From: a bacterium
Lineage (GTDB): Bacteria; Desulfobacterota; Binatia; HRBIN30; CADEER01
NCBI GenBank assembly: GCA_019637795.1
Contig: JAHBUY010000002.1
Location: forward strand, 969,606 to 1,033,605
Length of the DNA: 64,000 nucleotides
Reading direction: 5' to 3'
The position numbers were made by a program, and so were the translations under genes. The notes under the pieces are model-generated. The model searched no databases. It was not told the origin of the DNA and saw nothing but the letters and a program-made list of their open reading frames with translations. Positions 10,373 to 64,000 of the stretch are shown in pieces. Each line of letters starts with the position of its first letter. Position 1 is the stretch's first letter.

Positions 10373-10406
10373 CTGTCTCATCGGCCTGACGGCGGAACAG
10401 CCTCGC

Positions 10407-11726: not shown

Positions 11727-11740
11727 GCCGTGCCTTCCGT

Positions 11741-12376: not shown

Positions 12377-12498
12377 GCAGCCTCCTGTCCCCGCCGCCGC
12401 TGCAGTCGGCGCGGGGCGGCTCGCATCTAGACCGCGGCCGGAGCACTTCGCAACCGCCGACTCCCGGCGCGCCGCCAGGCGCATCGCCCGCGACCCCC

Positions 12499-13313: not shown

Positions 13314-13431
13314 GACAACTCCCTCTCGAGACTGCTGATAACAGTTTACCTACATTAAGACAACACTGTTGTTCCGCGGTCGGATCACCGCGTCAGCATC
13401 GAGTGGCACGCGAGGCCGCCGCCGATCCGCG

Positions 13432-14862: not shown

Positions 14863-14940
14863 GGGTCAGCGCTTACCCGCACGCCGCCGGCGCGGCAAGA
14901 TGAATCACCGCCGCGCGCCGGCCATCGGCCGCGGACCGCT

Positions 14941-17302: not shown

Positions 17303-17408
17303 GGCGTGGCGCGGCGCTGTCACGGTGCGCGGAACGTAGCCCGCCGGCGGCGCCAGTTCCACGACGGCGCGGTCCCGGCGGGCGCCGCCGCGGCGCGGGC
17401 GCGGGACG

Positions 17409-18602: not shown

Positions 18603-18605
18603 CGG

Positions 18606-21016: not shown

Positions 21017-21169
21017 CTCATCGCCTGGAGGTGGAGCGCGCCTGGACGCCCGGGTGACCGGTCGCGCAGGCGCGGGAGATCTCGCGCAGCCATCGCATCG
21101 ACGGAGGCGAAGTATGACAGAGCGAGCGGACGACGCCAGCGGCGCGGCGGCTGCCCCGCGGCCGCGATC

Positions 21170-23298: not shown

Positions 23299-23414
23299 GG
23301 GAAGCCGCCGCGCGGGGGGCGCGACGGCATCCCGCTAGCACAGGGGTGGCGGTGGGTCACGGTTCGAACGGGCCGCTCGGGCGGCGACGCCGCCCGCCGC
23401 CGCCGCGCCACGGT

Positions 23415-24230
23415 TCAGAACCGGGCTTGCAGCGCCAGGCCCTGGCCGGTGGGGAGCGGGCCGATCCCCCAGCGAACCTGGGGATCGGGTCGAATGCCGC
23501 CGCTGTCGACCTGCTCGCGGTACGCCTGCCAACTGTTCAGCGGCTCCCACGGCGTGAGCAGGATCTGCGCCTCGCCGACCGCGGTGTTGAGGAAGAACAG
23601 CAGCGCCGCGTCGCCGAGATCGTCGCGCGCCACCAGCACCGAGGCGGCGCTGGCGTTGAGGACGACGTTGCCGGTGTGGAGCAGCCAGCCGGTGCGCTGC
23701 TCGGCGCGACCGGCGGCGCGGTAGAGGATCTCCTCGCCGGCGGCCAACTGGGCGGCGCGGTCCTCGTGCGTCGCCGACGGCATCGCCGCCAGCGGATCCG
23801 AGCCGCTGCGTCCGGGCAGCGGATCGAGCAGCAGGTAGGTGGTGCCGATGAGCCCGAGGCTGCTGTTGAGGATGTCGTAGACCTGCTTGTCGTCGTTGCT
23901 CTCGACCGCCGCCGTCGCCGCGCCCGCCGCCATGCCGGCGGCGTTGACGGCGAGGAAGCCGTAGTACCACAGCGACGCGTGCAGCTCGTTGTCGTCGAGC
24001 GAGCGGGTGACGAACGTCAGCCGGTCGAGGATCTCCCGATCGCTGAGTTGCGCCGCCTCCTCGGCGGTCAACGGCTTCTTCCCGGGGACGCCGGGATCGA
24101 GCGCCTTGCGCGCCAGCTCGGCGGCACCGTGGTAGACGGCGCAGCCCTGCACGGCGGCCAGCGCCGCCGCGACGGCGATCAGGCGGAGCAGCCGACGCGC
24201 GACCTCGACCCGCGACCTGCTGGTGGTCAT
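23415..24230 (-). CDS. lipoprotein of unknown function
   Basis: Met at 24230 was verified. Signal peptide with lipobox (LAAVQGCA). Confidence 0.5.
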   Translation of the reverse strand: MTTSRSRVEVARRLLRLIAVAAALAAVQGCAVYHGAAELARKALDPGVPGKKPLTAEEAAQLSDREILDRLTFVTRSLDDNELHASLWYYGFLAVNAAGMAAGAATAAVESNDDKQVYDILNSSLGLIGTTYLLLDPLPGRSGSDPLAAMPSATHEDRAAQLAAGEEILYRAAGRAEQRTGWLLHTGNVVLNASAASVLVARDDLGDAALLFFLNTAVGEAQILLTPWEPLNSWQAYREQVDSGGIRPDPQVRWGIGPLPTGQGLALQARF

Positions 24231-24261
24231 CCTCACTCCTCCGCTTCCGGCGGATGCCGGT

Positions 24262-25503
24262 TCAGATTCGCCCCGCCGCGCCACCCGCGGCTCCTGGCGA
24301 TCTCGTATCACGGCCGATGAGCGCCGCGAGATTGTCGCGCATGATCTTGCGGACCTCGAGCGGCGACATCCCGGGCAGCTCGTCGGCGAGCTCGGCCGGC
24401 CACAGGAGTCCCTCGGGATGGGGATAGTCGGAGCCGCCGAGCACGTGGTCGGCGCCGATCAGCCGCGCCAGCGCCGGGATGTCGTCCTCGAAGAAGGGCG
24501 CCACCCACACGTTGCGCCGGAAGGTGTCGCTCGGCCGCTCCGGCGGCACGCCGAAGCGCCACATGTCCTTGCTGTAGAGGCGCGCCAGGTGATCGAGCTT
24601 GTGCAGCAGCGGCGCCACCCAGCCCGAGCCGTACTCGATGCTCAGCACCCGCAGGCCCGGGAAGCGGCCGAAGAGGTTGTCGGCGATCAGCGCCGTGATG
24701 GTATCGACGACCGGCCGCTCGGTGAACGACAGCGCCCACTCCATCAGGGTGTGGCGGTGCGACGGCGGGTGCGGGCGCAGGCCCCAGGGCGGGTTGTACA
24801 TCTCGCTGAAGGGGGTGCGGCCGATGTGGTAGACGATGTTGAGCGACGCCTCCTGGCAGCGCGCCCAGAAGGGATCGAAGTGGGGATCCGCCGGCGAGCG
24901 GCCGGCGAAGGGCCCGGCGGTCAGGATGGCGAAGCGCGCGCCGCGCGCCAGCAGGCGGTCGAGCTCGGCGACCGCCTGGTCGCGGTCGAACAGCGACAGC
25001 AGCGGCGCGCCGAACACGCGGCCGTCGCCCCCGTAGCCCCAATCCTCCTCCAGCCAGCGGTTGAAGGCGCGCAGGCTCGGGTACAGCACCTCCGGCGTCT
25101 CGCGCAGTTGCGGCTCGACGCCGACGCCGGCGGTGGGTAGCAGCAGGGCGGCCTCGACGCGCTGCGCGTCCATCCGCGCCAGGCGGGCCGCGCGGTCGGT
25201 GAACTCCGGCACGGCGAGGGCGTCGATCGGCTGCAGGCTCGGGCTGCCGCCCTCCTCGGTCTCGCCGCGCAGGAACGCCTTCATGATGCCGGGGGCGCCG
25301 ACGCTGTCGCCGGCGCCGACGCTGAAGAACTGGCAGCGTTCGCGGCCGACGTACATTCTGCCCGGGCGGGTGGTGCCGTCGGGCCCGCGGTCGATCCACA
25401 CCGTCCGTTCCCGCCACGCCGCCTCGATGTGCCGGGTGAAGCAGTCGTCCGGCTCGTAGTAATGGGTGTCGGCGTCGAAGAGCGCGTAGTCGAGCGCGGC
25501 CAT
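24262..25503 (-). CDS. amidohydrolase-2 family metal-dependent hydrolase (ACMSD-like)
   Basis: Met (MAALDYALFDADTHYYEP) at 25503 was verified. Amidohydro_2 motifs (DxHxH-like DADTHY, HIG, GSDYPH). Confidence 0.7.
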   Translation of the reverse strand: MAALDYALFDADTHYYEPDDCFTRHIEAAWRERTVWIDRGPDGTTRPGRMYVGRERCQFFSVGAGDSVGAPGIMKAFLRGETEEGGSPSLQPIDALAVPEFTDRAARLARMDAQRVEAALLLPTAGVGVEPQLRETPEVLYPSLRAFNRWLEEDWGYGGDGRVFGAPLLSLFDRDQAVAELDRLLARGARFAILTAGPFAGRSPADPHFDPFWARCQEASLNIVYHIGRTPFSEMYNPPWGLRPHPPSHRHTLMEWALSFTERPVVDTITALIADNLFGRFPGLRVLSIEYGSGWVAPLLHKLDHLARLYSKDMWRFGVPPERPSDTFRRNVWVAPFFEDDIPALARLIGADHVLGGSDYPHPEGLLWPAELADELPGMSPLEVRKIMRDNLAALIGRDTRSPGAAGGAAGRI

Positions 25504-41699: not shown

Positions 41700-43658
41700 T
41701 CACATCGGGGCGGGCCCGTGGAGGGCCCGCCCCTTTTTTTCGCCGTTCGCCCGCTCGTCATCCGGCGACGGCTCGGCGGCGGCGCGGTCGACCACGACGA
41801 TCGACGCCAGCGCCGCCGACCACTCGCCGAGCTGCGCCGCCACCGGCACCGCCTCGTTCAGCCGGAAGACGTAGCCGTCGCGTTCGCCGCGGCCGCGCAG
41901 CCAGGCGGCGAGGATGATCGTGCCCTCCACGTCCTCGGGTTGGAGGGCTCGCGTGCCGGGCAGCGTCAGCTCGCTCTGCACGCGCGCCGCGAAGGCGGTC
42001 AGCTCGTCGACGGCGCGCGCCTCGGCGCGCGCGATCAGCCGGCCGTGAGCGACGGCGTAGAGCAGCGCCCGGCCGCCGTCCGCGGCCGGCTGCATGGCGA
42101 CGAAGTGCTGGCGCTCGACGATCCAGCTCATGGTCCGCTGGCGACGCCGCATGCGCCGCACCAGCTCGAGGTCGCGCTGCAGCCGCGCCGCCGCCTCGAA
42201 GCGGTGCGCCGCGCTGTGCGCGTCGCGCCGCTGTTCGAGCTGGCGCTGCGCGGCGCCGATCTCGCCGTCGAAGAAGCGCGCCGCCGCCGCGACCTGCTGG
42301 GCGTAGGCGGCGCGGTCGACGCGCGCCGCGCAGGGCGCGCTGCAGGCGCCGATCTGCCCGTGCAGGCAGGGCGAGACGTCCGCCGACGGCCGCAGGCCGC
42401 CGGTGCAGGTGCGCAGGCGGAACAGCCGCGCCACCAGCGCCTGCGCCTCGACCGCGGCGAGGCGGCTGCGGAAGGGGCCGAAGTAGCGCCCGGCGCGGCC
42501 GGTCAGTCGGTTGACGACCGCCAGGCGCGGAAACGCGTCGCCGAGCATCAGCTTGAGGAAGGCGATCTGCGGCAGGTGCTTGCTGAGCCGGTTGTACGGC
42601 GGCTTCAGGCGGCGGATCTCGTCCGCCTCGCACAGCGAGGCTTCGAGCTCCGAGCCCGCCACCGCCACCTCGACGTCGGCGATGTGGCGGATCAGGTCGA
42701 GCACCTTGCCGCGGTGCGCCGCGGCGTTGGTCAGGTAGCTGCCGACGCGCTGGCGGAGATTCTTCGCCTTGCCGACGTAGAGCAGACGGCCGTCGGCGTC
42801 GCGGAAGCGGTAGATGCCCGGCGCGGTGGGCAGCGCCGCGACGCGCGCCCGCGGCAGGGCGCAGGCGAAGCGCCGGCCATCGCTGGCGCTGTGCTGCAGA
42901 TCGAGCAGCTCCGCCACCCGCCGGACGCCGCGCCGGCGCGCCAGCTCGAGGAGCTGGAAGAGGATCTCGACCGTGATGCGCGCGTCGCCGAGGGCGCGGT
43001 GGCGGTCGACCAGCGGAATGCCGAAGTGCCCGCCCAGCGCGTCGAGCGACTTGCGCCGCACCTGCGGCAGAAGGCGACGCGCCAGGCGCAGCGTGCAGGC
43101 ATGGGGCTGGTCGAACGTCGTGCCGGCCAGCGCCAGGCGGGCGGCGTCGAGGAAGCCGAGGTCGAAGCCGGCATTGTGCGCGACGAGGACGGCGCCGGCG
43201 GCGAAGTCGATGAAGCGCGGCAGCACCGCCGCGATCCCCGGCTGCCCCGCCAGCATCGCGTCGGTGATTCCGGTCAGCCCGGTGATGAACGGCGGCAGGC
43301 GGCGGCCGGGATGCACGAGCTGCGCGAAGCGGTCGACCACGCGCCCGCCCACGACCTTGAGGGCGCCGATCTCGATGATGCCGTGGCCGCGCGTCGGCGC
43401 GCCGCCGGTGGTCTCGAGATCCACCACCACCCAGGTGGCCGCGTCGAGCGGCTGCGCCAGGGCGGCGTGCGCGGTGGCGATCCAGCGGCCGGTCGCCTCG
43501 CTGTAGGCGAAACGGCCGTCGCCACCGAGCAGCGCCTGCAGGAAGCGCGGCCCGAGCTCGCGATCGGCGCCCGGCCGGGTGAAGACCAGATCCAGCAGCT
43601 CGCCGGCCGTCGCCCCGGACGGCCGCTCCATGAGGTAGCGGTGGACTTTCTCGCGCAT
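41700..43658 (-). CDS. DnaQ-like 3'-5' exonuclease fused to a GIY-YIG (UvrC/Cho-like) nuclease domain
   Basis: Exo motifs (VVVDLETTG, LVAHNAGFDLGFL, HRALGDA) and GIY-YIG (PGIYRFRDADGRLLYVGKAKNLRQRV). The start is uncertain (Met41 chosen), because Met1 lies only 4 nt from the prfB stop. Confidence 0.7.
   Translation of the reverse strand: MREKVHRYLMERPSGATAGELLDLVFTRPGADRELGPRFLQALLGGDGRFAYSEATGRWIATAHAALAQPLDAATWVVVDLETTGGAPTRGHGIIEIGALKVVGGRVVDRFAQLVHPGRRLPPFITGLTGITDAMLAGQPGIAAVLPRFIDFAAGAVLVAHNAGFDLGFLDAARLALAGTTFDQPHACTLRLARRLLPQVRRKSLDALGGHFGIPLVDRHRALGDARITVEILFQLLELARRRGVRRVAELLDLQHSASDGRRFACALPRARVAALPTAPGIYRFRDADGRLLYVGKAKNLRQRVGSYLTNAAAHRGKVLDLIRHIADVEVAVAGSELEASLCEADEIRRLKPPYNRLSKHLPQIAFLKLMLGDAFPRLAVVNRLTGRAGRYFGPFRSRLAAVEAQALVARLFRLRTCTGGLRPSADVSPCLHGQIGACSAPCAARVDRAAYAQQVAAAARFFDGEIGAAQRQLEQRRDAHSAAHRFEAAARLQRDLELVRRMRRRQRTMSWIVERQHFVAMQPAADGGRALLYAVAHGRLIARAEARAVDELTAFAARVQSELTLPGTRALQPEDVEGTIILAAWLRGRGERDGYVFRLNEAVPVAAQLGEWSAALASIVVVDRAAAEPSPDDERANGEKKGRALHGPAPM
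41707..41740 (+). terminator. Rho-independent terminator
   Basis: GGGGCGGGCCC-gtgga-GGGCCCGCCCC perfect 11-bp GC stem followed by TTTTTTT. It is 26 nt after the FG-GAP gene stop and overlaps the 3' codons of the convergent gene. Confidence 0.75.
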
Positions 43659-43782
43659 GACCGGGCGCGGCCATAGCACGGCGCGAACAGAAAGCGAAAA
43701 CGGACACTTCGCCGCGGCGAGGCGGAGGGGCCGAGCGTCGGCGAAGGATCCGCCCTCCCGGCGCGGCGCGGAGGCCAATCGC

Positions 43783-44899
43783 TCAGTGCGGGGCGGTGCC
43801 GGCGGTCTGCTGCAGGTACTCTTCGATGAAGGGATCGATCTCGCCGTCGAGCACGGCGTCGGCGTTGCCGATCTCCTTGCCGGTGCGGTGGTCCTTCACC
43901 AGGCGGTAGGGGTGGAGGACGTAGGAGCGGATCTGGCTGCCGAAGGCGATGTCCTTCTTGGTCTTGTTCATCGCATCGATCTGCTCGCGCTGCTTCTGCA
44001 TCTCGAGCTCGTAGAGACGGGCGCGCAGGATCTTGAAGGCCATTGCCTTGTTCTTGTGCTGGGAGCGTTCGTTCTGGCAGGCGACGACGATGCCGGTGGG
44101 CATGTGCGTGATGCGCACGGCGGAGTCGGTCTTGTTGACGTGCTGGCCGCCGGCGCCGCTCGAGCGGTAGGTGTCGATGCGCAGGTCCTTCTCGTCGATC
44201 TCCACCTCCACGGCATCGTCGATCTCGGGATAGACGAACACCGAGGCGAACGAGGTGTGGCGGCGGGCGTTGGCGTCGAAGGGCGAGATGCGCACCAGCC
44301 GGTGCACGCCGACCTCGCTCTTCAGGTAGCCGAAGGCGTACGGGCCCTCGACGGTGAACGAGGCGCTCTTGATGCCCGCGCCCTCGCCGGGCTGCACGTC
44401 GACCAGCTCGGTCTTGTAGTCGTGGCGCTCGCACCAGCGCAGGTACTGGCGCAGCAGCATCTCGGCCCAGTCCTGCGCCTCGGTGCCGCCGGCGCCGGCC
44501 TGTAGCTGGACGATGGCGTTGCCCGGATCGTGCTCGCCGCCGAGCAGGCGCTGCAGGTCCATCTGGTGCAGCGCCTCTTCGATGCCGGCCAGCGTCTTCT
44601 GCGCTTCGGCGAGGGAATCGGCGTCACCCTCGGCGGCCATCTCGAGGTAGAGCTCCGCCTCCTCGAGCGCCTCGACCTGCTTGCGCCAGCCGGTGAGCGG
44701 CGCCGTCAGTTGCGCGCGCTCGCGGCTGACCGTCTGCGCCTTCTCGGGGTCGTTCCAGAAGTCGGGCTCGGACGAGATGGCGTCGAGCTCCTGAATGCGA
44801 GCCTCCCGTTTCGGGAGGTCAAAGATACCTCCCGAACGCCTGGAGGCGTTCGCGCAGGGCAGCGATGCGGTCCTTCAGCTCGGATGTTTCGATGGCCAT
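43783..44899 (-). CDS. prfB: peptide chain release factor 2 with +1 programmed frameshift
   Basis: ORF0 [26 protein letters not shown] ends in GGGAGG-UAU-CUU-UGA-C at ~44818-44833. The +1 frame continues [16 protein letters not shown]... into the 285-aa ORF containing SPF and GGQ ([11 protein letters not shown]). Confidence 0.85.
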
Positions 44900-53880: not shown

Positions 53881-54136
53881 CGGAGGCACGCTAGAGCCGG
53901 GTCGGAGGGAATTCAACGGGGCGCCACGGGTGGACACGGATGGCCACCGATGAACACGGATCCACGAAGAGCACGAACCCCGCCTCCTCACCCCCCCAAT
54001 GCCACGAAGCCCCGCCCAACCCCGGGAGAATGGGACGGGTGGAGTGGGGATTCGTGTTCTTCGTGGCTTCGCCGGCCGGCGGCGGTGCTGACATTGGTCA
54101 TGGCGGACCGGCCGCTCCGCTGCTTGAGATCCCTCG

Positions 54137-54964
54137 ATGGCAGCAGGGCGATCGAACCATCGCCTGTCGCGGCGGGCGGCGGCGCGGGCGGTGCTCGAGC
54201 GCTTCGATCCCGCCGCCGCCGACCTGTGGATGGGCCGGGTGCGAGCGGTCCTCTGGCCCTACTTCCGGCCGCAGTTGATCGGCACCGAGCATCTGCCGAC
54301 GGGGCGGGCGCTGCTCATCGGCCGCCATTCCGGCGTCATTCCCTACGATGCGGCGTGCGCCATGGCGGCCATCCACGAAGCCACTGGTCGGGTGTGTCGC
54401 GCCTTCGGCGACCGTTTCTTCGCCCTCATCCCCGGCATGGAACGGTTGCTCAATCGCTGTGGCGCCGGCATCGCCGATCCGGCCGTGGTCGAGGCGGCGC
54501 TGCGCGAGGAGCACGCGGTCCTGGTGTTCCCGGGCGGCACGCTCGACATGCAGCGACCGTACCTGAGCGACGCCTATCGGGTCGTCCCCCACCGCGGCTT
54601 CGCGCCCGGCCACGGCGGCTACGTCAAGCTGGCGCTGCGCACCGGCGCGCCGATCGTGCCGCTGGCGGTGGTCGGCGCCGAGGAGGCGCACGTCCTGCTC
54701 GGCAATTGGGCGGCCGGCGCCCGCCTGCTGGGAACGCCGCTGCTGCCATTCGTGCTCTTCCCGCTGCCCCTGCCGGTGAAGCTCTACCTCCGCCTCGGCC
54801 GGCCGATCCACCTGCGCGGCACGCCGGCCGACGCCGCGCGGCAGGATCGCGTCGACGCGCTCAACCGGGTGGTGCAGCGCCGCCTGCAGCGCCTGATCGA
54901 CGACACCGTGCGGCGCCGGCGCGGCATCGTCTTCAGCCGCTTCGATCAACGAGGAACCCGATGA
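54137..54964 (+). CDS. PlsC-family lysophospholipid acyltransferase-like protein
   Basis: HxxxxD motif (RHSGVIPYD) and FPGGT motif. The stop overlaps the downstream start (ATGA). The true start may be Met32 (54230). Confidence 0.6.
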   Translation: MAAGRSNHRLSRRAAARAVLERFDPAAADLWMGRVRAVLWPYFRPQLIGTEHLPTGRALLIGRHSGVIPYDAACAMAAIHEATGRVCRAFGDRFFALIPGMERLLNRCGAGIADPAVVEAALREEHAVLVFPGGTLDMQRPYLSDAYRVVPHRGFAPGHGGYVKLALRTGAPIVPLAVVGAEEAHVLLGNWAAGARLLGTPLLPFVLFPLPLPVKLYLRLGRPIHLRGTPADAARQDRVDALNRVVQRRLQRLIDDTVRRRRGIVFSRFDQRGTR

Positions 54965-55905
54965 CCACGCCGCCGCGCCGCATCCGCTTCGGCATCCAGA
55001 CCGGACAGCAGTTCGCGAGCTGGCCGGAGATCGTCCGCGTCTGGCAGCGCGCCGAGGCGCTCGGGTACGACACCGCCTGGACCTACGACCACTTCGTCGC
55101 CGTGATGATGGATCCGTACGATCCCTGCCTCGAGGCCTGGACCTGCCTGGCGGCGCTGGCGGTGCAGACGACGCGGATCCGCATCGGCGCCCTGGTGACC
55201 GGCAACACCTACCGCCATCCGGCGATCCTGGCCAAGATGGCGACCACCGTCGACGTCATCAGCGGCGGCCGCCTCGAGCTCGGCATCGGCGCCGGCTGGT
55301 ACGAGCCCGAGCACGCCATGTTCGGCCTCCGCTTCGGCAGCGCGCGCGAGCGCTGCGAGCGCCTCGACGAGGCCCTGACGGTCATCCGCGCCCTCTGGAG
55401 CGAGCGCCAGGCGAGCGTCAGCGGCCGGCACTACCAGTTGCGGGGCGCGGTCGCCGAGCCCAAGCCGGTGCAGCGTCCGCACCCGCCGATCACCGTCGCC
55501 GGCAGCGGCGAGCGGCGCCTGCTGCCGATCGTCGCCCGCCACGCCGACGCCTGGAGCGGCTTCGGCTCGCCGGCGGTGTGCCGGCGCAAGATCGAGATCC
55601 TGCGCCGCTGCGGCGACGCGATCGGGCGTGACGTCGACGCGATCGAGAAGGGCGTGCTGTTGCCGGCGCAGATCACCGACGACCTCGCCACCGCCGCGCC
55701 GCTGATCCAGGGCTACGCCATGTACCAGGGCATCGCGGAGGACGAGGCCCGCGACTGGATGCTGCTCGGCAGCGCCGACGAGATCTCCCGCCACCTCGAG
55801 TCCTTCGTCGCCGCCGGCGTCAGCCACTTCGTGCTGACGCTGTCGCCCTACAACTTCGACGTCTTCGAGCGCTTCGCCGCCGAGGTGATGCCGCGTTTCC
55901 GCTGA
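54961..55905 (+). CDS. luciferase-like monooxygenase (LLM) class F420/flavin-dependent oxidoreductase
   Basis: LLM signature (RFGIQTG...GYDTAWTYDHF...GRLELGIGAGW). C-terminal 314 codons of a 1551-aa artifactual ORF. Translationally coupled to the acyltransferase. Confidence 0.75.
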   Translation: MTTPPRRIRFGIQTGQQFASWPEIVRVWQRAEALGYDTAWTYDHFVAVMMDPYDPCLEAWTCLAALAVQTTRIRIGALVTGNTYRHPAILAKMATTVDVISGGRLELGIGAGWYEPEHAMFGLRFGSARERCERLDEALTVIRALWSERQASVSGRHYQLRGAVAEPKPVQRPHPPITVAGSGERRLLPIVARHADAWSGFGSPAVCRRKIEILRRCGDAIGRDVDAIEKGVLLPAQITDDLATAAPLIQGYAMYQGIAEDEARDWMLLGSADEISRHLESFVAAGVSHFVLTLSPYNFDVFERFAAEVMPRFR

Positions 55906-56031
55906 CGGCGGCCCGGCCGGCGGTCGCGCGGGCGCGGCGGCGGTGCTAGCGTTGCAGGCCACGCCCATGCGCATCGGCCGGTCGCTTCCGCCCTCCTCCC
56001 CGCACCGCGCCGCGCCGCCGGAGCGCCGCTG

Positions 56032-57534
56032 GTGAGTCCCGCCCCGTCGCCGCGCCCGCGGCGCTCTCTCTGGAGCATCTGGGCGCCGCTGCCGCTGCTG
56101 GTGCTGGTCCTGCTCGACTGGACCTTCCCGCTCTACTTCTGGCGCATTCCGAAGATCACCGGGCGCGCCGCCGATTACGGCTACCAGTTCCTCTACGACG
56201 TCTCGCGGATGGGCCCCAAGGCGGAGGGCGCGGTCCGCATCCTCGCCTGCGGCAGCTCGGTGGCCGGCGCCTTCGACCCGGCGCAGGTGCAGGGCCTGTT
56301 GCAGGCGCGCTTCCCGGACGTCCCGATCGATGTCCAGCGCCTGCTCAAGCCGAGCATGAAGCCGTCCGACTACCGGCTGTTCCTGCGCAGCGAGCTGTCG
56401 ACGCTGCAGCCGGACATCGTGCTCCTGATGGTCAACCTGCAGGACTTCCTCCACTCCAACTTCGAGCGCGAGATCCGGCCGGACGTGCAGGCCGTCCTGC
56501 CGCCCTGGCCGACGTTGCGCGAGCGCTATCCCCACATCCCGCTCTCCGATTCGCTCGCCCTGCTGCTCGCCTCGGGGAGCAACTTCTTCCGCTATCGCCA
56601 GCCGCTGCGCTCGAGCATCGAGGATCACGCCCGCGCCCTGGTGAGCTGGGCGCGCAGCCCCGCCGTGTCCGGGGGCTACGGCGTCTACCCGGACGGCTAC
56701 GCCCGCCGACGGTTCGGCATCCCCGTGCAGCGCGGCAAGCCGCTCGATCTCGACTACTTCATCGATCCGGCCTGGATTGCCCAGCGCGGCGCGGTGCGGC
56801 TCGACTTCCGCCTCGGCCGGACGTCGCTGGCCACGCGCAGCGAAACGACTCCCGGCTGGAAGACGGTGCACCTCGACCTGCCCGGCGACGGCACCGCCGT
56901 GCTGCAGGTGAGCAGCGACAGCGCGTGGAACCGACGCGCCGCCGGTCTCGCCGACGACCTGCGCCTGCTCGGCGTGCGGCTGCGCGCCGCGCCCGGCGCT
57001 CCGCCCGACGGCGGACCGCAGCCGTTCCACTATCCGCCCACCGACCAGCGCGACCTCGACGCATTCCTCCGCATGGGCGGCGCCACCGGCGCCGCCTACG
57101 CCGAACGCTGGCAGGCGGCGCTGGCGCGCGACGACGACTTCGGCGGCCGCCTGCGCGCCTGGCGCGACACCCGCCTGGCGCTGCGCGACACGCCTTTCGC
57201 GCCGACCGACGAGTTCCGCGAGCTCGCCGGCATGGTCGACGAGCTCGCCGCCCAGGGCACGGCGGTGATCCTCGTCAACACGCCCGAGAACCCGCTGATG
57301 ACCGAGTACCAGCACGGCGCGTACTACCAGGGCTACCGCGACTTCTTCCGCCGCCTCGCCGAGGCGCATCCGGGAGTCTGGTTCGTCGATCTGCTGGACA
57401 GCCTGCCGGCGCAGGACTTCAACGATCTCATGCACGCGACCTACATCGGCGTGATCACGCTCGGCCCCACGTACGCCGACGTCATCGCCGAGGTGATGCG
57501 CGCCCGCGGGCTCGCGCCCGCGTCTCCGCCCTGA
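56032..57534 (+). CDS. membrane-anchored hypothetical protein (possible DltD/AlgJ-like SGNH-fold accessory protein)
   Basis: N-terminal TM anchor, balanced composition rich in Trp/Tyr/Phe. Convergent with the MBOAT-ACP module. Family assignment is inference from context. Confidence 0.45.
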   Translation: MSPAPSPRPRRSLWSIWAPLPLLVLVLLDWTFPLYFWRIPKITGRAADYGYQFLYDVSRMGPKAEGAVRILACGSSVAGAFDPAQVQGLLQARFPDVPIDVQRLLKPSMKPSDYRLFLRSELSTLQPDIVLLMVNLQDFLHSNFEREIRPDVQAVLPPWPTLRERYPHIPLSDSLALLLASGSNFFRYRQPLRSSIEDHARALVSWARSPAVSGGYGVYPDGYARRRFGIPVQRGKPLDLDYFIDPAWIAQRGAVRLDFRLGRTSLATRSETTPGWKTVHLDLPGDGTAVLQVSSDSAWNRRAAGLADDLRLLGVRLRAAPGAPPDGGPQPFHYPPTDQRDLDAFLRMGGATGAAYAERWQAALARDDDFGGRLRAWRDTRLALRDTPFAPTDEFRELAGMVDELAAQGTAVILVNTPENPLMTEYQHGAYYQGYRDFFRRLAEAHPGVWFVDLLDSLPAQDFNDLMHATYIGVITLGPTYADVIAEVMRARGLAPASPP

Positions 57535-57554
57535 CGCCCCTCCTCCGGCCGAGG

Positions 57555-59024
57555 TCAGAAGCGGACGTAGATGAACTGCTTGGCGCCGGTCTCGCCCCAG
57601 AGGAGGATGGCGAAGCCGAGCGTCGCGTACGCCGCCCAGCGCGCCCAGCCGGGCGCCGCCTGCAGCACCGCCGGCACCTGGCCGCGCCGTTGCAGCAGGT
57701 GGACCGTCTCCATGACGATCAGCGCGAAGACGATCAGCGGCACGTCCGCCGCCGACCAGGCGAGCCCGCGCACGCCGATGCCGTGCGGGGCGCCGACGCC
57801 GAGCAGCGGCCCGCAGAGGCCGGCCGCGGCGCGTTGCAGGACCTGCCAGGCGGCGGCGACGGAGTCGGCGCGGAAGAAGACGAACGACGCCACCACCATG
57901 TTGAAGGTGATCAACGGCCCGCTGATGCGGTGCGCCCGGGCCAGCCACGGCGCGCCGCGCAAGCGCTTGGTGCGGGTGCGCAGCGTCAGCGAGGAGCCGA
58001 TCAGATACGCCGCGTGGATCAAGCCGAAGACGACGTACGTCAGGCGCGGCCCGTGCCAGACGCCGATCGCCAGCATGTTGATCGTCAGGCTGGCGATCAG
58101 GCCGGCCTGTCCCCAGTTCCGCAGCGCCATGCGCAAGGGCGTGAAGACGTACTCGCCGAGCCAGGAGGTCAGCGTCATGTGCCAGCGCCGCCAGAAGTCC
58201 TGGATGTTGTCGGCGTAGAACGGCGAGTCGAAGTTCGGCGGCGACCGCAGGCCGAACAGGCGGGCCGAGCCGATGGCGATGTCGGTCAGACCGGAGAAGT
58301 CGGCGTACAGTTGGATGGCGAAACCATACGTGGCCAGCGCGACCACGCCGCCCGAGAACTGCTGCGGCGCGGCGAAGACCTGGTCGACCATCACCCCGAG
58401 CCGGTCGGCCAGCACCAGCTTCTTGAACAGTCCGAAGAGGATGAGCTGGAAGGCGCTGCCGACCACCGCCGGCCGCGGTCGCCGCAGCGGCTCGATCTGG
58501 GCGAGAAAATCGCCGGCGCGTTGGATCGGACCGCTGAGGATCTGCGGAAAGAAGGCGGCGTAGGTGGCGAGGGAGGTGAAATGGCGGCACGGCTCCAGCC
58601 GCTGCCAGTACACGTCGACCACGTAGCTGATCAGCTTCAGCGTGTAGTAGGAGATGCCGACCGCGCCGGCGAACTGCGCGATCACCGCGCCGCCGAACGT
58701 CGAGCCGCCGAGCCACCCGCCCGTCGCGGCGTCGACGCCGCTCAGGTACTTGAACGCGAGCAGCGGCAGGAGCAGCACCGCCAGGCCGATCCGCAGGGTC
58801 GCCAGCCGCGCCGCCTCGTCGGTCTGCCGGTGCAGGCGGTGGCCGACGGCGTAGGCGGCGCCGCTGACGCCGAGCAGCAGCGCCGCGAAGGGCACGCTCC
58901 AGGTGCAGTAGAACGCGTATGAGGCGACGAGCAGGATGGCGCGCCGCCAGGCGAGCGGCGCCAGGTGGTAGGCGATCGCCGTCAGGGCGAGGAACGCCCC
59001 GTAGGCGAGCGAGTTGTACAGCAC
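57555..59024 (-). CDS. MBOAT-family membrane O-acyltransferase (AlgI/DltB-like)
   Basis: Multi-TM protein with the conserved WRRWHMTL...W...Y MBOAT His region. Confidence 0.8.
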   Translation of the reverse strand: MLYNSLAYGAFLALTAIAYHLAPLAWRRAILLVASYAFYCTWSVPFAALLLGVSGAAYAVGHRLHRQTDEAARLATLRIGLAVLLLPLLAFKYLSGVDAATGGWLGGSTFGGAVIAQFAGAVGISYYTLKLISYVVDVYWQRLEPCRHFTSLATYAAFFPQILSGPIQRAGDFLAQIEPLRRPRPAVVGSAFQLILFGLFKKLVLADRLGVMVDQVFAAPQQFSGGVVALATYGFAIQLYADFSGLTDIAIGSARLFGLRSPPNFDSPFYADNIQDFWRRWHMTLTSWLGEYVFTPLRMALRNWGQAGLIASLTINMLAIGVWHGPRLTYVVFGLIHAAYLIGSSLTLRTRTKRLRGAPWLARAHRISGPLITFNMVVASFVFFRADSVAAAWQVLQRAAAGLCGPLLGVGAPHGIGVRGLAWSAADVPLIVFALIVMETVHLLQRRGQVPAVLQAAPGWARWAAYATLGFAILLWGETGAKQFIYVRF

Positions 59025-59046
59025 CCCCGCGGCCCGCCGCTGCCAG

Positions 59047-59289
59047 CTAGCCCAGCTTGCTGCCGATCAGGGCGATGAATTCGCCCACGTTGGCGAGCGC
59101 GCTCACTTCCTTGGTGGTGAACTTGACCCGAAAGGCGCGCTCCACCGCCACGATCAGGTTGATGTGATTGAGCGAGTCCCACTCCTCGACGTCCTTGGCC
59201 GTCATGGCGTCGTGGATCTCGATCGTGTCGTCGTCGAACACCTCGCGGAAGATCGCGGTCAGCCGCGTCGTGATCTCAGTGCGCTCCAT
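59047..59289 (-). CDS. acyl carrier protein
   Basis: 80 aa. The DVEEWDSLNHINLIV phosphopantetheine-attachment Ser motif (DSL) is of the type paired with FkbH/MBOAT systems. Confidence 0.75.
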   Translation of the reverse strand: MERTEITTRLTAIFREVFDDDTIEIHDAMTAKDVEEWDSLNHINLIVAVERAFRVKFTTKEVSALANVGEFIALIGSKLG

Positions 59290-61075
59290 CGCTCGTCCCG
59301 CTCCCGGCCGACTCCACCGCCACCATCGGCACCTCGCGCGGCGCGTAGGCCGCGACGTCGAGTTGCCAGGTCGCCTCTCCCGTCGGGCTCTCGTCGACCT
59401 TGTCGAACCCGAACTGGGCGTAAAACTCCCGCACCATGCCGTTCTTCGCCGTCGGCAGGTAGCGACCGATCACCGTCCGGTAGCCGTGCGCGCGGGCCCA
59501 CTCGACGACCCGGTTCATGGCGAACGCCTCCACCCCGCGTCCCAGCACCCGGCAGCTCATGAGCCAGGCATCGATCACCAGCGCATCCGGCCGGCGCTCG
59601 AGGATGACGACCGAGATCAGGCCGTTGTCGCCGAAGCGGTCCGTCAGCTTCGCGTACCACGGCACCCAGGTCGCGTCGTCCGCCATCATGGCGCGGCACT
59701 CGGCCAGGTTGTACCGCCGGGTGGTCAGGTTGAACTGGTTGCTGCGTTGCAGCAGTTGGACGATGCGCGTCAGGTGCAGCTCGTCGAAGGGCGCCAGGGT
59801 GATGCGCATGTCGAGCGAGCGCAGGTAGGCGCCGAGGTCGGTGGCTTCGCTCTCGAGGCGCTGGCGCTCGGCGTTGGCGCGGTACAGGTCGGCGCGGCGG
59901 CGATCCTCGTCGGAGAACGACGTCGCCTCGAAGAGATTGAGCTCGGCCAGGACGCGGACGTAGTCGGAGGCGTCCTCCGGCAGCTCCGGCACGATCACCT
60001 CGGGCAGCTCGGCGCGCACCAGGTTGCGCTCGAACGGGTTGTCGTCGACGAACACCATGCTGTCGAAACCGATGTTGAGGGTCTCGCGGATGCGACGGAT
60101 GTTGTCCGGCTTGGGGTTCCAGTTGGCGACGAAGACCGCGAGGTCCTCCTCGCGCAGCACCATCTCGGGGTGGCTGCGGAACGGCTCGAGCGCCGTGGCG
60201 TGGTCGTTCTTGCTGCACACCGCCAGGATGATGCCGCGGCGCTTCAGCTCGCGCAGGTAGAACTGCAGCCGGTGGTACGGTTCGCCGTCGCCGTAGGGCC
60301 CGATGGCGATGCCCTCGAGCCCGTCGTCGCCGACCACCCCTCCCCACAGCGTATTGTCGAGATCGAGCACCAGGCACTTGACCACGTGCCCGAGGCTGGC
60401 GAGGACGATGTCGGCGATGTTCTGCGCCACCAGCGGCAGGTGGTCGAAGGCGCAGAAGGCCTTGTAGAGCGTCCACATCCGCTCGTCGCACCACTGCCGG
60501 CGGCCGACGTAGGAGGCCAGCGCCTCGACGTCGTTGATCAGCACGTGGGGGCGCTCGCGCGCCAGCGCGGTGAGGCGCGCGTTGAGCGCGGCGACGACGG
60601 CGTACAGCGACTCCGCCACCTTGTGGTCGAAGTTGCCGAACTGGCGCTCGTACGGCAGCACGTAGGTCGACTGCAGCACCAGGGCCGGGCACCGGCCGGC
60701 GAGCGTGTCCCACAGCCCGGCGAGCCGCTGCGCCACCTCGTCCGCGAACCCGGCGCGCTCGCCCGGGCTGCCGTAGTACTTCAGGCGCAGGGCGTTGGTG
60801 CTGTTGAGGATGACGACGACCTCGGGGCGGAACGCGTAGAGCGCCGAGCCCGGGTCGAGGATCGCGAGCTCGGTCGTATCGTACTCGCCGAGGTGGATCT
60901 CGGCGCGCACCCGATGCTGGGCCAGCAGCACCTCGAGCAGCGGCGCGAGCTGCGGCACCGCCGCGTCCGACAGCACGGCGATCCGGACGGTGCGCGTGCA
61001 GGTCGAGAAGTCGAGCGTCCGCCGCGCCTTCACCAGCGCGCCGTAGTCGAGATGGGTGGCGTCGTGCCTCAGCAC
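59276..61075 (-). CDS. FkbH-like / HAD-superfamily subfamily IIIC enzyme with C-terminal acetyltransferase-like domain
   Basis: HAD-IIIC core (VLDLDNTLWGGVVGDDG...AVCSKND...NWNPKPDNI...VFVDDNP). An N-terminal SGNH-like region and a C-terminal GNAT-like region. Its 3' end overlaps the ACP start. Confidence 0.75.
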   Translation of the reverse strand: MLRHDATHLDYGALVKARRTLDFSTCTRTVRIAVLSDAAVPQLAPLLEVLLAQHRVRAEIHLGEYDTTELAILDPGSALYAFRPEVVVILNSTNALRLKYYGSPGERAGFADEVAQRLAGLWDTLAGRCPALVLQSTYVLPYERQFGNFDHKVAESLYAVVAALNARLTALARERPHVLINDVEALASYVGRRQWCDERMWTLYKAFCAFDHLPLVAQNIADIVLASLGHVVKCLVLDLDNTLWGGVVGDDGLEGIAIGPYGDGEPYHRLQFYLRELKRRGIILAVCSKNDHATALEPFRSHPEMVLREEDLAVFVANWNPKPDNIRRIRETLNIGFDSMVFVDDNPFERNLVRAELPEVIVPELPEDASDYVRVLAELNLFEATSFSDEDRRRADLYRANAERQRLESEATDLGAYLRSLDMRITLAPFDELHLTRIVQLLQRSNQFNLTTRRYNLAECRAMMADDATWVPWYAKLTDRFGDNGLISVVILERRPDALVIDAWLMSCRVLGRGVEAFAMNRVVEWARAHGYRTVIGRYLPTAKNGMVREFYAQFGFDKVDESPTGEATWQLDVAAYAPREVPMVAVESAGSGTSDGAH

Positions 61076-61785
61076 GCCTGGCCTCCGGCGACCGGCAGGT
61101 TGACGCCGGTGATGTAGCTCGCCGCGGGCGACAGCAGGAAGGCGATCACGCCGGCGACCTCGGCGGGCGTCGCCAGGCGTTCCATCGGCAGGGTCGCGGC
61201 GAGCTCCTCGACGAAGCGCTCCGGCAGGTCGGCGTTGAACGCCGTGGCGGTCATCGACGGCGCGACGGCATTGACCCGCACGCCGTGGCGGACGAGCTCG
61301 ACCGCCATGGCGCGCGTCAGGCCGAGCAGCGCGTACTTCGCGCTCACGTAGGCCGCCTGCTTGGCCGGGGGCATGCCGAGGGTCACCGACGACAGCACGG
61401 TGACGATCGCGCCGGGCGCGCCGCGCGCCTTGAGCTGGCTGGCCAGCGCGCTCGACAGCGTCAACACGCCGCGCAGCGCCTCGGCCTGATAGGCGATGAA
61501 CGCCTCGGGGTCGGTCTTCAGCAGCAGCCGGCGCGGGCTGGGCCGGGCGGCATTGTTGACCAGCGCGTCGAACGGCTCCTCGCGCAGCAGGGCGGCGAGC
61601 GCCGCCAGCGAGGCCGGATCGCCCTGGTCGTAGTGCCGGGCGCGCGCGCCGGTGGCGTCCTGCAGCGCCTCCGCCGACTCCCGGCCACGGCAGTAGGTGA
61701 ACAGCACGTCGTGCCCCTGCCCGGCGAGATGGCGCACCGTCGCGGCGCCGATGCCGCCGCTGCCGCCGGTGACCGCGACCCGCAT
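61069..61785 (-). CDS. SDR-family oxidoreductase
   Basis: TGGSGGIG Rossmann motif, NNAA, and YVSAK catalytic motif. Confidence 0.75.
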   Translation of the reverse strand: MRVAVTGGSGGIGAATVRHLAGQGHDVLFTYCRGRESAEALQDATGARARHYDQGDPASLAALAALLREEPFDALVNNAARPSPRRLLLKTDPEAFIAYQAEALRGVLTLSSALASQLKARGAPGAIVTVLSSVTLGMPPAKQAAYVSAKYALLGLTRAMAVELVRHGVRVNAVAPSMTATAFNADLPERFVEELAATLPMERLATPAEVAGVIAFLLSPAASYITGVNLPVAGGQAC

Positions 61786-62207
61786 CAGAGCAGCCCCACC
61801 TGGACCTTCGCCCGCGCCGCGACCCGGCCGCGGGTGACGTTGGTCAGCACCAGGTCCATCGCCACCACCCGCACCGCCTCCACCACCTGCGTGACCGTGG
61901 CGGCGATCTCGATCTCGTCGCCGACGTGCGACGGGCTCTTGAGCTGGGTGTGCACGGAGTGCAGCAGCGTCCGTTCGCCCGGAAAGTGCATGCCGACGAA
62001 GTGCGAGATGAACCCGGCGAGGATCATGCCGTGCGCCACCTTCTCCGGGAAGCCGTGCGCCCGCGCCGCCGCGTCGTCGACGTGCAGGGCGTTGGCGTCG
62101 CCGAAGGCGGCGAGGAAGTGCGCATGGACGGCCGGCGTGATGCGGTAGCTGCGGTTGGTCCGGTGGCCTTCGACGATGCCGCGCAGGGCGACCTCGGGTC
62201 CGCTCAT
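61785..62207 (-). CDS. MaoC-like (hot-dog) dehydratase
   Basis: Met at 62207 was verified. FGDANALHVDDAAARAHGFPEKVAHGM is typical of MaoC/(R)-hydratase. Confidence 0.7.
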   Translation of the reverse strand: MSGPEVALRGIVEGHRTNRSYRITPAVHAHFLAAFGDANALHVDDAAARAHGFPEKVAHGMILAGFISHFVGMHFPGERTLLHSVHTQLKSPSHVGDEIEIAATVTQVVEAVRVVAMDLVLTNVTRGRVAARAKVQVGLL

Positions 62208-62643
62208 GACGGCGTTCACGGCGGCGTCGCCACCGGGATCAGCGACCGCACGACGGGTGGCCGCGGAGGATACGGCCGCGTCCAGCTCGCCGCCGCGCAG
62301 CCAGCGGCCATCCCCACGGACAGCCCGGAAGTGGTGGTGAATCCCATGATCGGCAGTATCGGATGCGCGGTTCTCGGCTCCGCGAGCGCGGCAGAAAAGT
62401 TGTACCCCGCGCCAACTGGCGCGAGCAAGGACCAACTGCCCCGAGACGGCCGGCGCCGCCGTCGCGGAACCGCCGCCCCGGTCTCGGGCCTGTCCGGCCG
62501 GTGTCCGCCACCAGGACCCTTCCCCGCCGCCCCGGTCCGGCGCGGGGGACGGGGATCCGCATGTGCCCGGGCGGGGTCCGAGGGGTCGCGGGAGCGGCGA
62601 CGGAGTGGCCATCGCCGGCCATGGGCGGCTATAGAGCCGCCGC

Positions 62644-63891
62644 ATGTCCGAGCCGACGCGGGTCCGCCAGCGGGTGCTCGCGTTCACGCTGACGCTGACC
62701 GCGATCGCCTACCTCGATCGCGTCTGCATCTCGATGGCGGCGCCGGCGATGAAAGCGGAGCTGGCGATCAGCGACGCCCAGATGGGCTGGGTGTTCAGCG
62801 CCTTCACCTTCGCCTACGCGCTGTTCGAGGTGCCGAGCGGCTGGCTCGCCGACCGTTTCGGCGCCCGGCTCATGCTGACCCGCGTCGTCGTCTGGTGGTC
62901 GGCGATGACCGCGGCGACGGGCGCGGTGTGGAGCATCGCCTCGCTGATCGGCGTCCGCTTCCTGTTCGGCATGGGCGAGGCCGGCTGCTTCCCCAGCATG
63001 GCGCGCGCCTATGCGCGCTGGCTGCCCCTGCGCGAGCGCGGGCGCGCCTTCGGTCTGACCCTGATGGCGGGGGCGCTCGGCGGCGCGGCGACCCAGCCGC
63101 TGGTGGTGGCGCTGCTCGAATGGATGCACTGGCGCCACACCTTCATGGTCTTCGGCGTCGTCGGCATGGTCTGGGCGGTGGTCTGGTTCTGGTGGTTCCG
63201 CGACGAACCGCGCGCGCACCCGGGGGTCAATCGGGCCGAGCTGGCATTGATCGGCGCCCAGCCCGCCGATCCCCATCACCACGTGCCCTGGGCGACGCTG
63301 CTGCGCGACCGCAACCTGCTCGCCATCTGCTTCATGTACCTGTTCGCGATCTACGGCTGGTACTTCTACCTCACCTGGCTGCCGACCTACCTGCTGCGGG
63401 CGCGCGGCTTCGACCTCAAACACGTCGGCTGGCTGGCGGCGTTGCCGCTGCTCAGCATCGCCAGCGGCGTCCTGGTCGGCGGCTGGCTGAGCGACGTCCT
63501 GGCGCGGCGCTGGGGCGTGCGGCGCGGCCGCCGCGCGCCCGGCATCGTCGGACTGCCGCTGGCGGCGGTGGCGATCGTCGCCGGCATCGCGACCCCGACG
63601 GCGACCAGCTCGGCGCTGTTCTTCGCCGCGGCCGCGGGCCTGGCCGCGCTCGGCGTCAGCCCGGCCTGGGCCGTCTGCCTCGAGATCGGCGGCCGCCACG
63701 CCGGCGTGGTGAGCGGCGCGATGAACATGTTCGGCAACTTCGGCGGCGCGCTCAGTCCGGTGGTGATCGGCTTCACGCTCGAGCAGGGGGGCGGCTGGAC
63801 GCCGTCGCTGCTCTCGATCGCCGTCTGCTACCTGCTCGCCGCCGGCTGCTGGATGCTGATCGACCCCGAACGCCCGATCGACGGCTGCTGA
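62644..63891 (+). CDS. MFS transporter (anion:cation symporter-like)
   Basis: 12 TM segments. MFS motif region (GWLADRFGARLM). Divergent from the MaoC-SDR-FkbH operon. Confidence 0.8.
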   Translation: MSEPTRVRQRVLAFTLTLTAIAYLDRVCISMAAPAMKAELAISDAQMGWVFSAFTFAYALFEVPSGWLADRFGARLMLTRVVVWWSAMTAATGAVWSIASLIGVRFLFGMGEAGCFPSMARAYARWLPLRERGRAFGLTLMAGALGGAATQPLVVALLEWMHWRHTFMVFGVVGMVWAVVWFWWFRDEPRAHPGVNRAELALIGAQPADPHHHVPWATLLRDRNLLAICFMYLFAIYGWYFYLTWLPTYLLRARGFDLKHVGWLAALPLLSIASGVLVGGWLSDVLARRWGVRRGRRAPGIVGLPLAAVAIVAGIATPTATSSALFFAAAAGLAALGVSPAWAVCLEIGGRHAGVVSGAMNMFGNFGGALSPVVIGFTLEQGGGWTPSLLSIAVCYLLAAGCWMLIDPERPIDGC

Positions 63892-63971
63892 TCCGCGCCG
63901 CCGCCCGCCCGGGCGGGTGCCGAGGGTCGGCAGCGGAGCGCGGGCGCAGTCGTGAAACGAACCTCGAGACG

Positions 63972-64000
63972 ACAAGCACCTTCACCACGGAGGCACGGAG
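63972..64000. mobile_element. MITE-like inverted-repeat element, copy 3 (left arm only, truncated by window end)
   Basis: GACAAGCACCTTCACCACGGAGGCACGGAG matches the flank and arm of copies 1 and 2. Confidence 0.5.

Follow-up and report, generated by a model that had tools for sequence, protein, structure and literature searches.

A six-gene FkbH–ACP–MBOAT–SGNH cassette on a Binatia contig as a candidate carrier-protein-fed acylation system

Overview of the cassette

A six-gene cassette was found at 56032–62207 of a 64,000-nucleotide stretch of contig JAHBUY010000002.1 (assembly GCA_019637795.1, positions 969,606 to 1,033,605, forward strand; hereafter the window), which had a G+C content of ~72% and the nearest relatives of which were Candidatus Binatia metagenome-assembled genomes (MAGs). 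The cassette encoded a MaoC-type dehydratase, a short-chain dehydrogenase/reductase (SDR), an FkbH-type (HAD-IIIC) loader, a dedicated acyl carrier protein (ACP), an MBOAT membrane acyltransferase, and a membrane-anchored SGNH-like protein. It is likely to represent an ACP-fed MBOAT–SGNH acylation system; the complete scheme, in which the six genes attach a small hydroxyacyl ester to an extracytoplasmic polymer, is probable, with somewhat less confidence.

Five genes were arranged on the minus strand: (i) the MaoC-type (R)-hydratase/dehydratase gene (61785–62207; 140 aa; PF01575, E = 1.4e-11); (ii) the SDR gene (61069–61785; 238 aa; adh_short_C2, E = 2e-44); (iii) the loader gene (59276–61075; 599 aa; TIGR01686 plus FkbH_N); (iv) the ACP gene (59047–59289; 80 aa; PP-binding, with DSL at 38–40); and (v) the MBOAT gene (57555–59024; 489 aa; PF03062, E = 2.7e-21). 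The SGNH-like gene (56032–57534, plus strand; 500 aa; Lipase_GDSL_2, E = 5.4e-09; precomputed match to PF27429 LB_356) was convergent to this five-gene run. All six had been listed in a first-pass annotation of the window and were recovered here by open reading frames (ORFs) and family scans. The MaoC and SDR genes had base 61785 in common, the SDR/FkbH and FkbH/ACP pairs overlapped by 7 and 14 nt, respectively, and the ACP–MBOAT spacing was 22 nt; because the five minus-strand genes overlap or stand no more than 22 nt apart, a single operon is suggested. Public assemblies with identical proteins had gene calls matching those of the window, and the SGNH-like protein was identical to 'hypothetical protein KF840_09780 [bacterium]'. 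The MaoC frame was open for 300 codons (61785–62687), and a 277-aa product was called in one assembly against 140 aa in others; the Pfam domain and the homologues agree with a 140-aa product that begins at ATG 62207.

The following order of steps is envisaged. By family precedent, the loader would take a phosphorylated C3 acid, 1,3-bisphosphoglycerate; its HAD domain would strip the phosphate, and Cys508 would hold the glycerate for transfer to the Ser39-phosphopantetheine of ACP, giving glyceryl-S-ACP. MaoC would remove the 3-hydroxyl to yield the enol of pyruvoyl-S-ACP, the 2-keto group of which would be reduced by SDR to give lactyl-S-ACP. MBOAT would dock the acyl-ACP on the cytoplasmic face and, in a His324-dependent transfer, pass the acyl group to Tyr486 of its C-terminal hexapeptide FIYVRF on the periplasmic side. 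The LB_356 SGNH protein would then accept the acyl group on Ser75 (with Asp465 and His468) and use it to esterify a hydroxyl group of the acceptor, likely a surface glycan.

Recurrence of the gene set among related loci

The locus sample comprised the best 80 of at least 580 stretches confirmed as FkbH-like among at least 600 pattern-scan stretches, with one genome per species. These 80 loci were assigned to Binatia, Myxococcota, Acidobacteriota, Leptospiraceae, Alpha-, Beta-, and Gammaproteobacteria, Verrucomicrobiota, Rokubacteria, Nitrospirae, Omnitrophota, Planctomycetia, Elusimicrobiota, Ignavibacteria, Bacteroidota, Clostridia, Erysipelotrichaceae, and Desulfovibrio. ACP was present in 71 loci, MBOAT within 8 kb in 66, and both together in 65, with ACP immediately upstream of MBOAT in 47; MaoC was present in 20 loci and an adjacent MaoC–SDR pair in 15. 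The MBOAT-less loci were mostly short contigs, or Clostridia-class (mostly Oscillospiraceae) MAGs also without detectable ACP. The clustering of HAD-IIIC, ACP, and MBOAT genes that the first-pass annotation had proposed to look for was thus borne out, and because the gene set recurred in 65 of the 80 related loci of many phyla, its grouping is far beyond chance. A search from the MBOAT side agreed: both of the two sampled homologues (52% and 44% identity) adjoined FkbH and ACP.

The ORF following MBOAT was typically 300–400 aa and anchored by a transmembrane segment. Alignment of 41 such ORFs disclosed a near-invariant G-x-S...H pattern, with Pfam matches in a minority (GDSL_2 in nine, DUF1574 in five, ALGX in three, and DltD in three), and stand-alone FkbH–ACP–MBOAT–SGNH-like units were found. 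The adjacent MaoC–SDR pair lay either upstream of FkbH or between ACP and MBOAT in the 15 loci harboring it, and an S-adenosylmethionine (SAM) methyltransferase was another frequent insert. Because the position of the MaoC–SDR pair varies and methyltransferase inserts recur, FkbH–ACP–MBOAT–SGNH is the core of the cassette, to which tailoring modules (MaoC with SDR, or a methyltransferase) are optionally added. The methyltransferase inserts suggest that the tethered hydroxy acid is O-methylated in some variants. In L001, the closest GTDB relative, the methyltransferase gene stood between FkbH and ACP, together with MaoC and SDR; the window had no such insert.

Class I SAM methyltransferase genes beside FkbH/ACP were located at 11885–13018 of L001, 11894–12880 of L095, 10780–11748 of L089, and 7621–8556 of L098. 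L098 carried, in addition, a fused class II aldolase–SDR gene (3871–5844) between ACP and MBOAT in a cassette that already had MaoC and SDR. L090 (815–5849), from a Sinorhizobium meliloti pSymB-type megaplasmid (accession number CP050512.1), contained genes for an MBOAT, a 409-aa protein annotated as 'TonB-dependent receptor' (no Pfam match), an ACP, and a HAD-IIIC protein, and adjoined GT2 and capsule genes; 40 S. meliloti plasmid records matched in a tblastn search of plasmids, and this model rhizobium would be a tractable host for work on the cassette. Identity of the ACP of this pSymB cassette with the studied SMb20651 was considered and rejected: SMb20651 is paired with an acyl-CoA-ligase homologue.

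FkbH-type loader and ACP

The loader scored 319.9 bits against TIGR01686 (cut-off 146.65) over profile positions 2–321 of 323, and its FkbH_N match had an E-value of 2.5e-26. Residues 424–541 gave a weak GNAT-like match, in keeping with the acetyltransferase-like C-terminus described in the first-pass annotation, and this C-terminal GNAT-like transferase domain carried Cys508. The match to PDB 3slr (BF1531 of Bacteroides fragilis; E = 1.7e-79) covered the FkbH_N and HAD parts; no other relative of the loader had a solved structure, and 3slr itself is a structural-genomics entry that continues to be listed as 'uncharacterized protein'.

The loader was aligned with three homologues from polyketide synthase (PKS) or nonribosomal peptide synthetase (NRPS) clusters and, separately, with 15 close homologues. 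The former three were (i) FkbH of a tetronate-type operon (FabH-like, FkbH, ACP, E2-like, and hydrolase) on a Streptomyces plasmid, (ii) an FkbH-like protein of a hybrid NRPS/PKS cluster on a Bacillus thuringiensis plasmid, presumably the zwittermicin cluster, and (iii) the FkbH domain of the FR901464 PKS. D238/D240 (DxD), S288–K289–N290, D344–D345, and S507–C508–R509–V510 were invariant in both alignments; the FkbH-type Cys is said to be catalytic from work on OzmB.

ACP scored 21.9 bits against PP-binding (cut-off 20.8) and displayed the motif EEWDSLNH, with D38–S39–L40 and a putative phosphopantetheine Ser39 encoded at 59173–59175. It is, by profile score, a specialised carrier, because it fell below all AcpP equivalog cut-offs; the WDSL core was kept in most ACPs of the related loci. 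Since the catalytic motifs, the TIGR01686 score, and D38–S39–L40 were all kept, the loader and the carrier look competent. The first-pass annotation had proposed that the carrier is loaded by the FkbH-type enzyme, and had named loss of the catalytic Cys/Asp or of a modifiable Ser in ACP as evidence to the contrary; DxD, SKN, DD, SCRV, and Ser39 were all retained, and its proposal appears sound. The precedent in the FkbH family is the conversion of 1,3-bisphosphoglycerate to glyceryl-S-ACP (PMC7489565).

MaoC–SDR pair and the tethered unit

MaoC scored 44.5 bits against PF01575 (cut-off 27), and its GDANALH at residues 36–42 corresponded to the hydratase-2 motif G36–D37–x–N39–x–x–H42. SDR (152 bits against adh_short_C2) displayed TGGSGGIG at 6–13, NNA at 77–79, Ser132/133, and YVSAK at 146–150 (Y146-x3-K150), and fell under every NCBIfam equivalog cut-off. 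A tblastn search of plasmids gave a match in a giant PKS gene of the spliceostatin producer Burkholderia sp. FERM BP-3421. The first 1,500 residues of this FR901464 PKS were organized as MaoC(10–98)–adh_short(280–467)–FkbH–PP-binding(1156–1217)–ketosynthase (KS), and its start thus had the families and order of the four window genes at 31–35% identity (31% for MaoC against the N-terminal MaoC domain, and 31% over 167 aa for SDR against the SDR domain of the loading module). This MaoC–SDR–FkbH–ACP Rosetta-stone fusion strengthened, by analogy, the suggestion of the first-pass annotation that the dehydratase and the reductase could remodel the tethered unit.

Zhang et al. 2011 (cited in PMC5640593) report in their title that the FR901464 PKS 'uses glycerate as starter units', and the abstract of PMC7431757 gives the acyl end of the product as a (2Z,4S)-4-acetoxy-2-enamide. 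A 4-acetoxy-2-enamide end calls for a 2-hydroxypropanoyl (lactyl) starter; the path from glyceryl to lactyl comprises loss of the 3-OH and reduction of a 2-keto group, and therefore suits a dehydratase and a ketoreductase. For the loading modules of FR901464 and bryostatin (BryA), which are said to be similar, conversion of glyceryl to lactyl is reportedly a published proposal. By analogy with the FR901464 PKS, the tethered unit may well be lactyl-ACP, a proposal held with nearly balanced confidence. The first-pass annotation had offered a glyceryl- or hydroxyacyl-ACP: the hydroxyacyl half is retained, most likely as lactyl, while the glyceryl half is disfavored by the FR901464 parallel.

Another cargo on the same machine, namely, glyceryl or a C3 derivative (pyruvoyl, 3-hydroxypropionyl-type, or tartronate semialdehyde), with MaoC and SDR tailoring by means other than dehydration then ketoreduction, is unlikely. 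It would accord with the glyceryl-ACP precedent of FkbH (PMC7489565), with the position of SDR below every specific NCBIfam cut-off, and with the about 60 of 80 cassettes that had no MaoC plus SDR and would deliver glyceryl or a methylated form; however, the FR901464 MaoC–SDR–FkbH–ACP fusion gives a lactate-derived end group, and MaoC and SDR recur side by side, as expected of a dehydrate-then-reduce couple.

MBOAT and its C-terminal shuttle motif

MBOAT matched the DltB structures 8jem/6bug at 3e-30, and its AlphaFold2 (AF2) model (pLDDT 87) had DltB as the best PDB match in Foldseek (TM-score to target 0.75); the parallel to D-alanylation drawn in the first-pass annotation thus extends to the predicted fold. 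Orthology with DltB was rejected: MBOAT scored 178.6 bits against the DltB equivalog TIGR04091, under the cut-off of 375. H282 (RRWH), H324 (WHG), Y486, and F489 were invariant across 38 homologues. Two extra helices were predicted at 427–446 and 459–476, and the tail was of low confidence in the model (residues 486–489 below pLDDT 50). The C-terminal hexapeptide FIYVRF (residues 484–489; 57558–57575, minus strand), read from the sequence, fits FxYxxF, with Tyr486 as the proposed covalent acyl carrier, and an F.Y..[FYW...]-type ending was present in 59 of the 63 complete MBOATs adjoining FkbH/ACP in other genomes.

To our knowledge, no MBOAT other than DltB is known to draw on a carrier protein. 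PatA acetylates itself on the invariant Tyr of the FxYxxF hexapeptide at its C-terminus, and PatB takes the acetyl from this Tyr; the same motif is described for DltX, and the non-Dlt MBOAT/SGNH pathways are described as having no carrier protein and an acyl-CoA donor (2025 JBC, PMC12148441). The window MBOAT is therefore read as a hybrid of two known bacterial types, combining a Dlt-like carrier-protein donor with a PatA-like fused shuttle, and no DltX-like microprotein would be needed because the FxYxxF shuttle is fused to MBOAT.

If MBOAT and the SGNH-like protein were instead an ordinary acetyl-CoA O-acetyltransferase pair (PatA/PatB or AlgI/AlgJ type), the MaoC–SDR–FkbH–ACP genes would merely be neighbors feeding a different cytoplasmic pathway. 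The fused FxYxxF tail is typical of acyl-CoA-using MBOATs, the MBOAT homologues were auto-annotated as AlgI, and the window MBOAT was equally close to a paralogue without adjacent ACP: in L084, a 287-kb Binatia MAG contig, the non-ACP-adjacent and the ACP-adjacent MBOATs shared 58% and 55% identity with it, respectively. Against such a pair stand the ACP-to-MBOAT adjacency kept across phyla (47 of 80 loci, with both genes in 65), the 22-nt spacing in the window, the occurrence of stand-alone FkbH–ACP–MBOAT–SGNH-like units, and a cassette free of any other acyl-ACP consumer (KS, FabH-like, GNAT, or condensation domain), and it is thus considered quite unlikely.

Convergent SGNH-like protein

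The AF2 model of the SGNH-like protein (pLDDT 90) contained an N-terminal transmembrane helix and an SGNH core split by an inserted beta-sandwich at about residues 216–300. The block I Ser (G74–S75–S76), block III Asn (N416), and block V DxxH (D465–x–x–H468) were all present; G74–S75 was invariant, and N416, D465, and H468 were at least 90% conserved among 36 sequences. In Foldseek, the best E-values were to two-domain CE2-type SGNH esterases and SsfX3, and the best whole-chain TM-scores were to DltD (6o93/3bma/7dxm; probability about 1, TM-score to target 0.37–0.44), while modules like carbohydrate-binding modules (CBMs) matched the beta-sandwich insert. No match to PDB sequences was found even at E = 1, and there was no Pfam DltD match. 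The first-pass annotation had put this gene forward as a convergent DltD/AlgJ-like candidate, which gains from the predicted SGNH fold and the conserved Ser75/Asp465/His468.

The LB_356 family is small, with 356 representatives at E up to 1e-3 among 1.84 billion proteins. An LB_356 homologue was co-directional with and directly downstream of MBOAT in L001, while the convergent layout of the window was also seen in the near-identical relative L096 and in the genome of P0124 (L097). The LB_356 partner, annotated as a hypothetical protein only, is proposed as a candidate membrane-anchored transferase that places the acyl group on a polymer.

Genomic neighborhood and the acceptor

In the glycan locus of L084, genes for a beta-helix protein, GT4, a metallo-beta-lactamase fold protein, PMT_2, a methyltransferase, and GT2 preceded MaoC–SDR–FkbH–(GT2–methyltransferase)–ACP–MBOAT–GDSL/ALGX, after which came GT2, PMT_2, and another MBOAT paired with LB_356. 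At 13613–21767, L084 contained two MBOAT–SGNH pairs (MBOAT plus GDSL/ALGX and MBOAT plus LB_356) and one FkbH/ACP set. An LB_356 paralogue carrying the KF840 locus-tag prefix sat in a similar glycan locus without the cassette; it probably comes from the same genome as the window protein, because the prefix is common to both. In other relatives, the cassette lay beside a Wzx flippase gene, GT2, and sulfotransferase genes, or beside heptose and GT9 genes. Because relatives embed the cassette or the LB_356 paralogue in glycan loci, a surface glycan is the best guess for the acceptor and a probable one.

A PlsC-like acyltransferase gene (54137–54964) and an LLM/luciferase-like oxidoreductase gene (~54961–55905) lay directly upstream of the SGNH-like gene on the plus strand, and the PlsC-like, LLM, and LB_356 genes may form an operon. 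A membrane lipid or lipoprotein in place of a glycan would agree with this same-strand arrangement, which was kept in close relatives (contigs at 89–100% identity), and with an ACP–FkbH–methyltransferase set beside the mprF/acvB lipid genes on a Paroceanicella plasmid. However, the PlsC/LLM pairing was confined to close relatives while LB_356 followed MBOAT in L001 and L084, the cassettes of relatives lay among GT2, GT4, PMT_2, Wzx, and heptose genes, the KF840-prefixed paralogue was in a glycan locus, and the predicted SGNH structure included a CBM-like beta-sandwich; a lipid or lipoprotein acceptor is improbable.

The Paroceanicella locus (L089, 8510–18075; P. profunda plasmid pD4M1C) comprised genes for ACP, FkbH, a methyltransferase, a VOC protein, and a 439-aa hypothetical protein (no Pfam match), adjoined mprF and acvB/virJ (lysyl-phosphatidylglycerol genes), and had no recognisable MBOAT gene; it may be a lipid-directed variant.

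Comparison with known systems

The cassette resembled the Dlt system (DltA, DltC, DltB, DltX, and DltD; teichoic acid D-alanylation) in its proposed carrier-protein thioester donor, DltB-fold MBOAT, FxYxxF tyrosine shuttle, and candidate final transferase, a membrane-anchored SGNH-fold protein. They differed in that (i) the loader of the cassette is an HAD/FkbH enzyme predicted to act on a phosphorylated C3 acid, while that of Dlt is the adenylating DltA, and no DltA-type AMP-binding gene was found among the called genes; (ii) the proposed cargo is a hydroxy acid rather than D-alanine; (iii) the shuttle is fused to MBOAT rather than borne by the DltX microprotein; and (iv) the SGNH-like protein has an inserted beta-sandwich and lacks the Pfam DltD match. 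PatA/PatB, AlgI/AlgJ/AlgX, and WssH/WssI (O-acetylation of peptidoglycan, alginate, and cellulose, respectively) likewise pair an MBOAT with an SGNH transferase, the MBOAT of the PatAB/AlgIJ type resembles that of the cassette in its fused FxYxxF and its two additional helices at the C-terminus, and some cassette partners matched the ALGX model; however, these systems are described as working on acyl-CoA and lacking a carrier protein (PMC12148441), while the cassette encodes ACP and a loader directly upstream of MBOAT. Because MBOAT falls below the DltB equivalog cut-off, DltA and DltX are lacking, and PatAB-type systems are described without a carrier protein, the cassette is a member of neither class.

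The FR901464/spliceostatin loading module and the cassette had four same families, in the same order, with identical FkbH catalytic motifs and an implied change of a glycerate-derived unit to lactyl. The PKS domains are fused and hand the unit to a ketosynthase, while the cassette has four separate proteins and MBOAT as the next gene; by this analogy, its donor-supply arm is read as a PKS loading module split into separate proteins. The FkbH/OzmB-type glyceryl-ACP synthases of methoxymalonyl-ACP and tetronate pathways also couple an FkbH domain with a stand-alone ACP, and the loader of the tetronate-type operon was 38% identical to the window loader over 90% of its length, but the downstream dehydrogenases and methyltransferase, or the FabH-like tetronate synthase, of those pathways were absent here. 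A role in feeding a polyketide or tetronate natural product with a glycerate-derived unit was therefore rejected as very improbable: FkbH plus ACP is a hallmark of such pathways and the Streptomyces plasmid homologue sits in such an operon, but no KS, FabH-like, acyltransferase (AT), acyl-CoA dehydrogenase, or O-methyltransferase gene lay in or beside the window cassette, and its conserved partners were MBOAT and SGNH proteins.

Relative to the first-pass annotation, the likely refinements are the fused FxYxxF shuttle, the placement of the SGNH partner in the small LB_356 family with a beta-sandwich, and a glycan acceptor, the last being likely because of the context in relatives only, not of the window itself.

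Several points weigh against the proposed scheme. Sequence alone is no proof of ACP use by MBOAT, because the L084 paralogue without adjacent ACP was equally similar. MaoC and SDR shared about 31% identity with their PKS counterparts, and the loading chemistry of FR901464 was deduced from the title of Zhang et al. 2011 and the structure of the product. The final tethered unit differs between genomes, because L001 adds a methyltransferase between FkbH and ACP. The window cassette had no adjacent glycosyltransferase gene, and its co-directional PlsC-like and LLM neighbors could point to a lipid acceptor.

Other features of the window

A divergent MFS transporter gene (62644–63891) was left out of the cassette: it accompanied the cassette in near-identical contigs only and was not found near that of L001. 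A riboswitch or leader RNA near the cassette was also rejected, an Rfam search of 54000–64000 at E up to 1 having given no match. The region 8019–24458, the 8–25 kb island of the first-pass annotation, resembles a tailoring or natural-product cluster of its own and contained genes for three B12-binding radical SAM enzymes (8019–10178, plus strand; 13432–14865 and 21925–23334, minus strand), a Trp-halogenase-like flavoenzyme (10407–11996, minus strand), and a polysaccharide deacetylase/DUF3473 protein (16487–17677, minus strand). A fused RNase_T exonuclease/GIY-YIG protein (731 aa; 41700–43895) and a large AAA_16/Trans_reg_C regulator (1009 aa; 305–3334) had no relation to the cassette.

Implications

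MBOAT–SGNH pairs are a major bacterial route for decorating cell-envelope polymers, with consequences for resistance to antibiotics and lysozyme, for recognition by phages and the immune system, and for the properties of the polymers. At present, two types are distinguished, Dlt with a carrier protein and separate DltX, and the others with acyl-CoA and a fused shuttle; the cassette mixes both and adds a donor-supply route taken from natural-product biosynthesis. No paper on a system combining FkbH/HAD-IIIC, ACP, and MBOAT emerged from full-text literature searches. It is tentatively proposed, with slightly less than balanced confidence, that FkbH–ACP–MBOAT–SGNH is an unrecognised, phylum-spanning route from a glycolytic C3 unit to glyceryl, lactyl, or methylated esters of surface glycans. 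Carriers of the cassette include culturable Chryseobacterium, Mucilaginibacter, and Sinorhizobium meliloti as well as MAGs assigned to gut Clostridia, and the prediction of lactyl/glyceryl esters is therefore directly testable in the culturable ones. If true, Dlt would no longer be the only MBOAT system to depend on a carrier protein, and the glycerate/lactate esters reported on some bacterial polysaccharides would have a candidate genetic origin; loader, ACP, MBOAT, and partner genes now annotated generically or as hypothetical would, moreover, gain a function.

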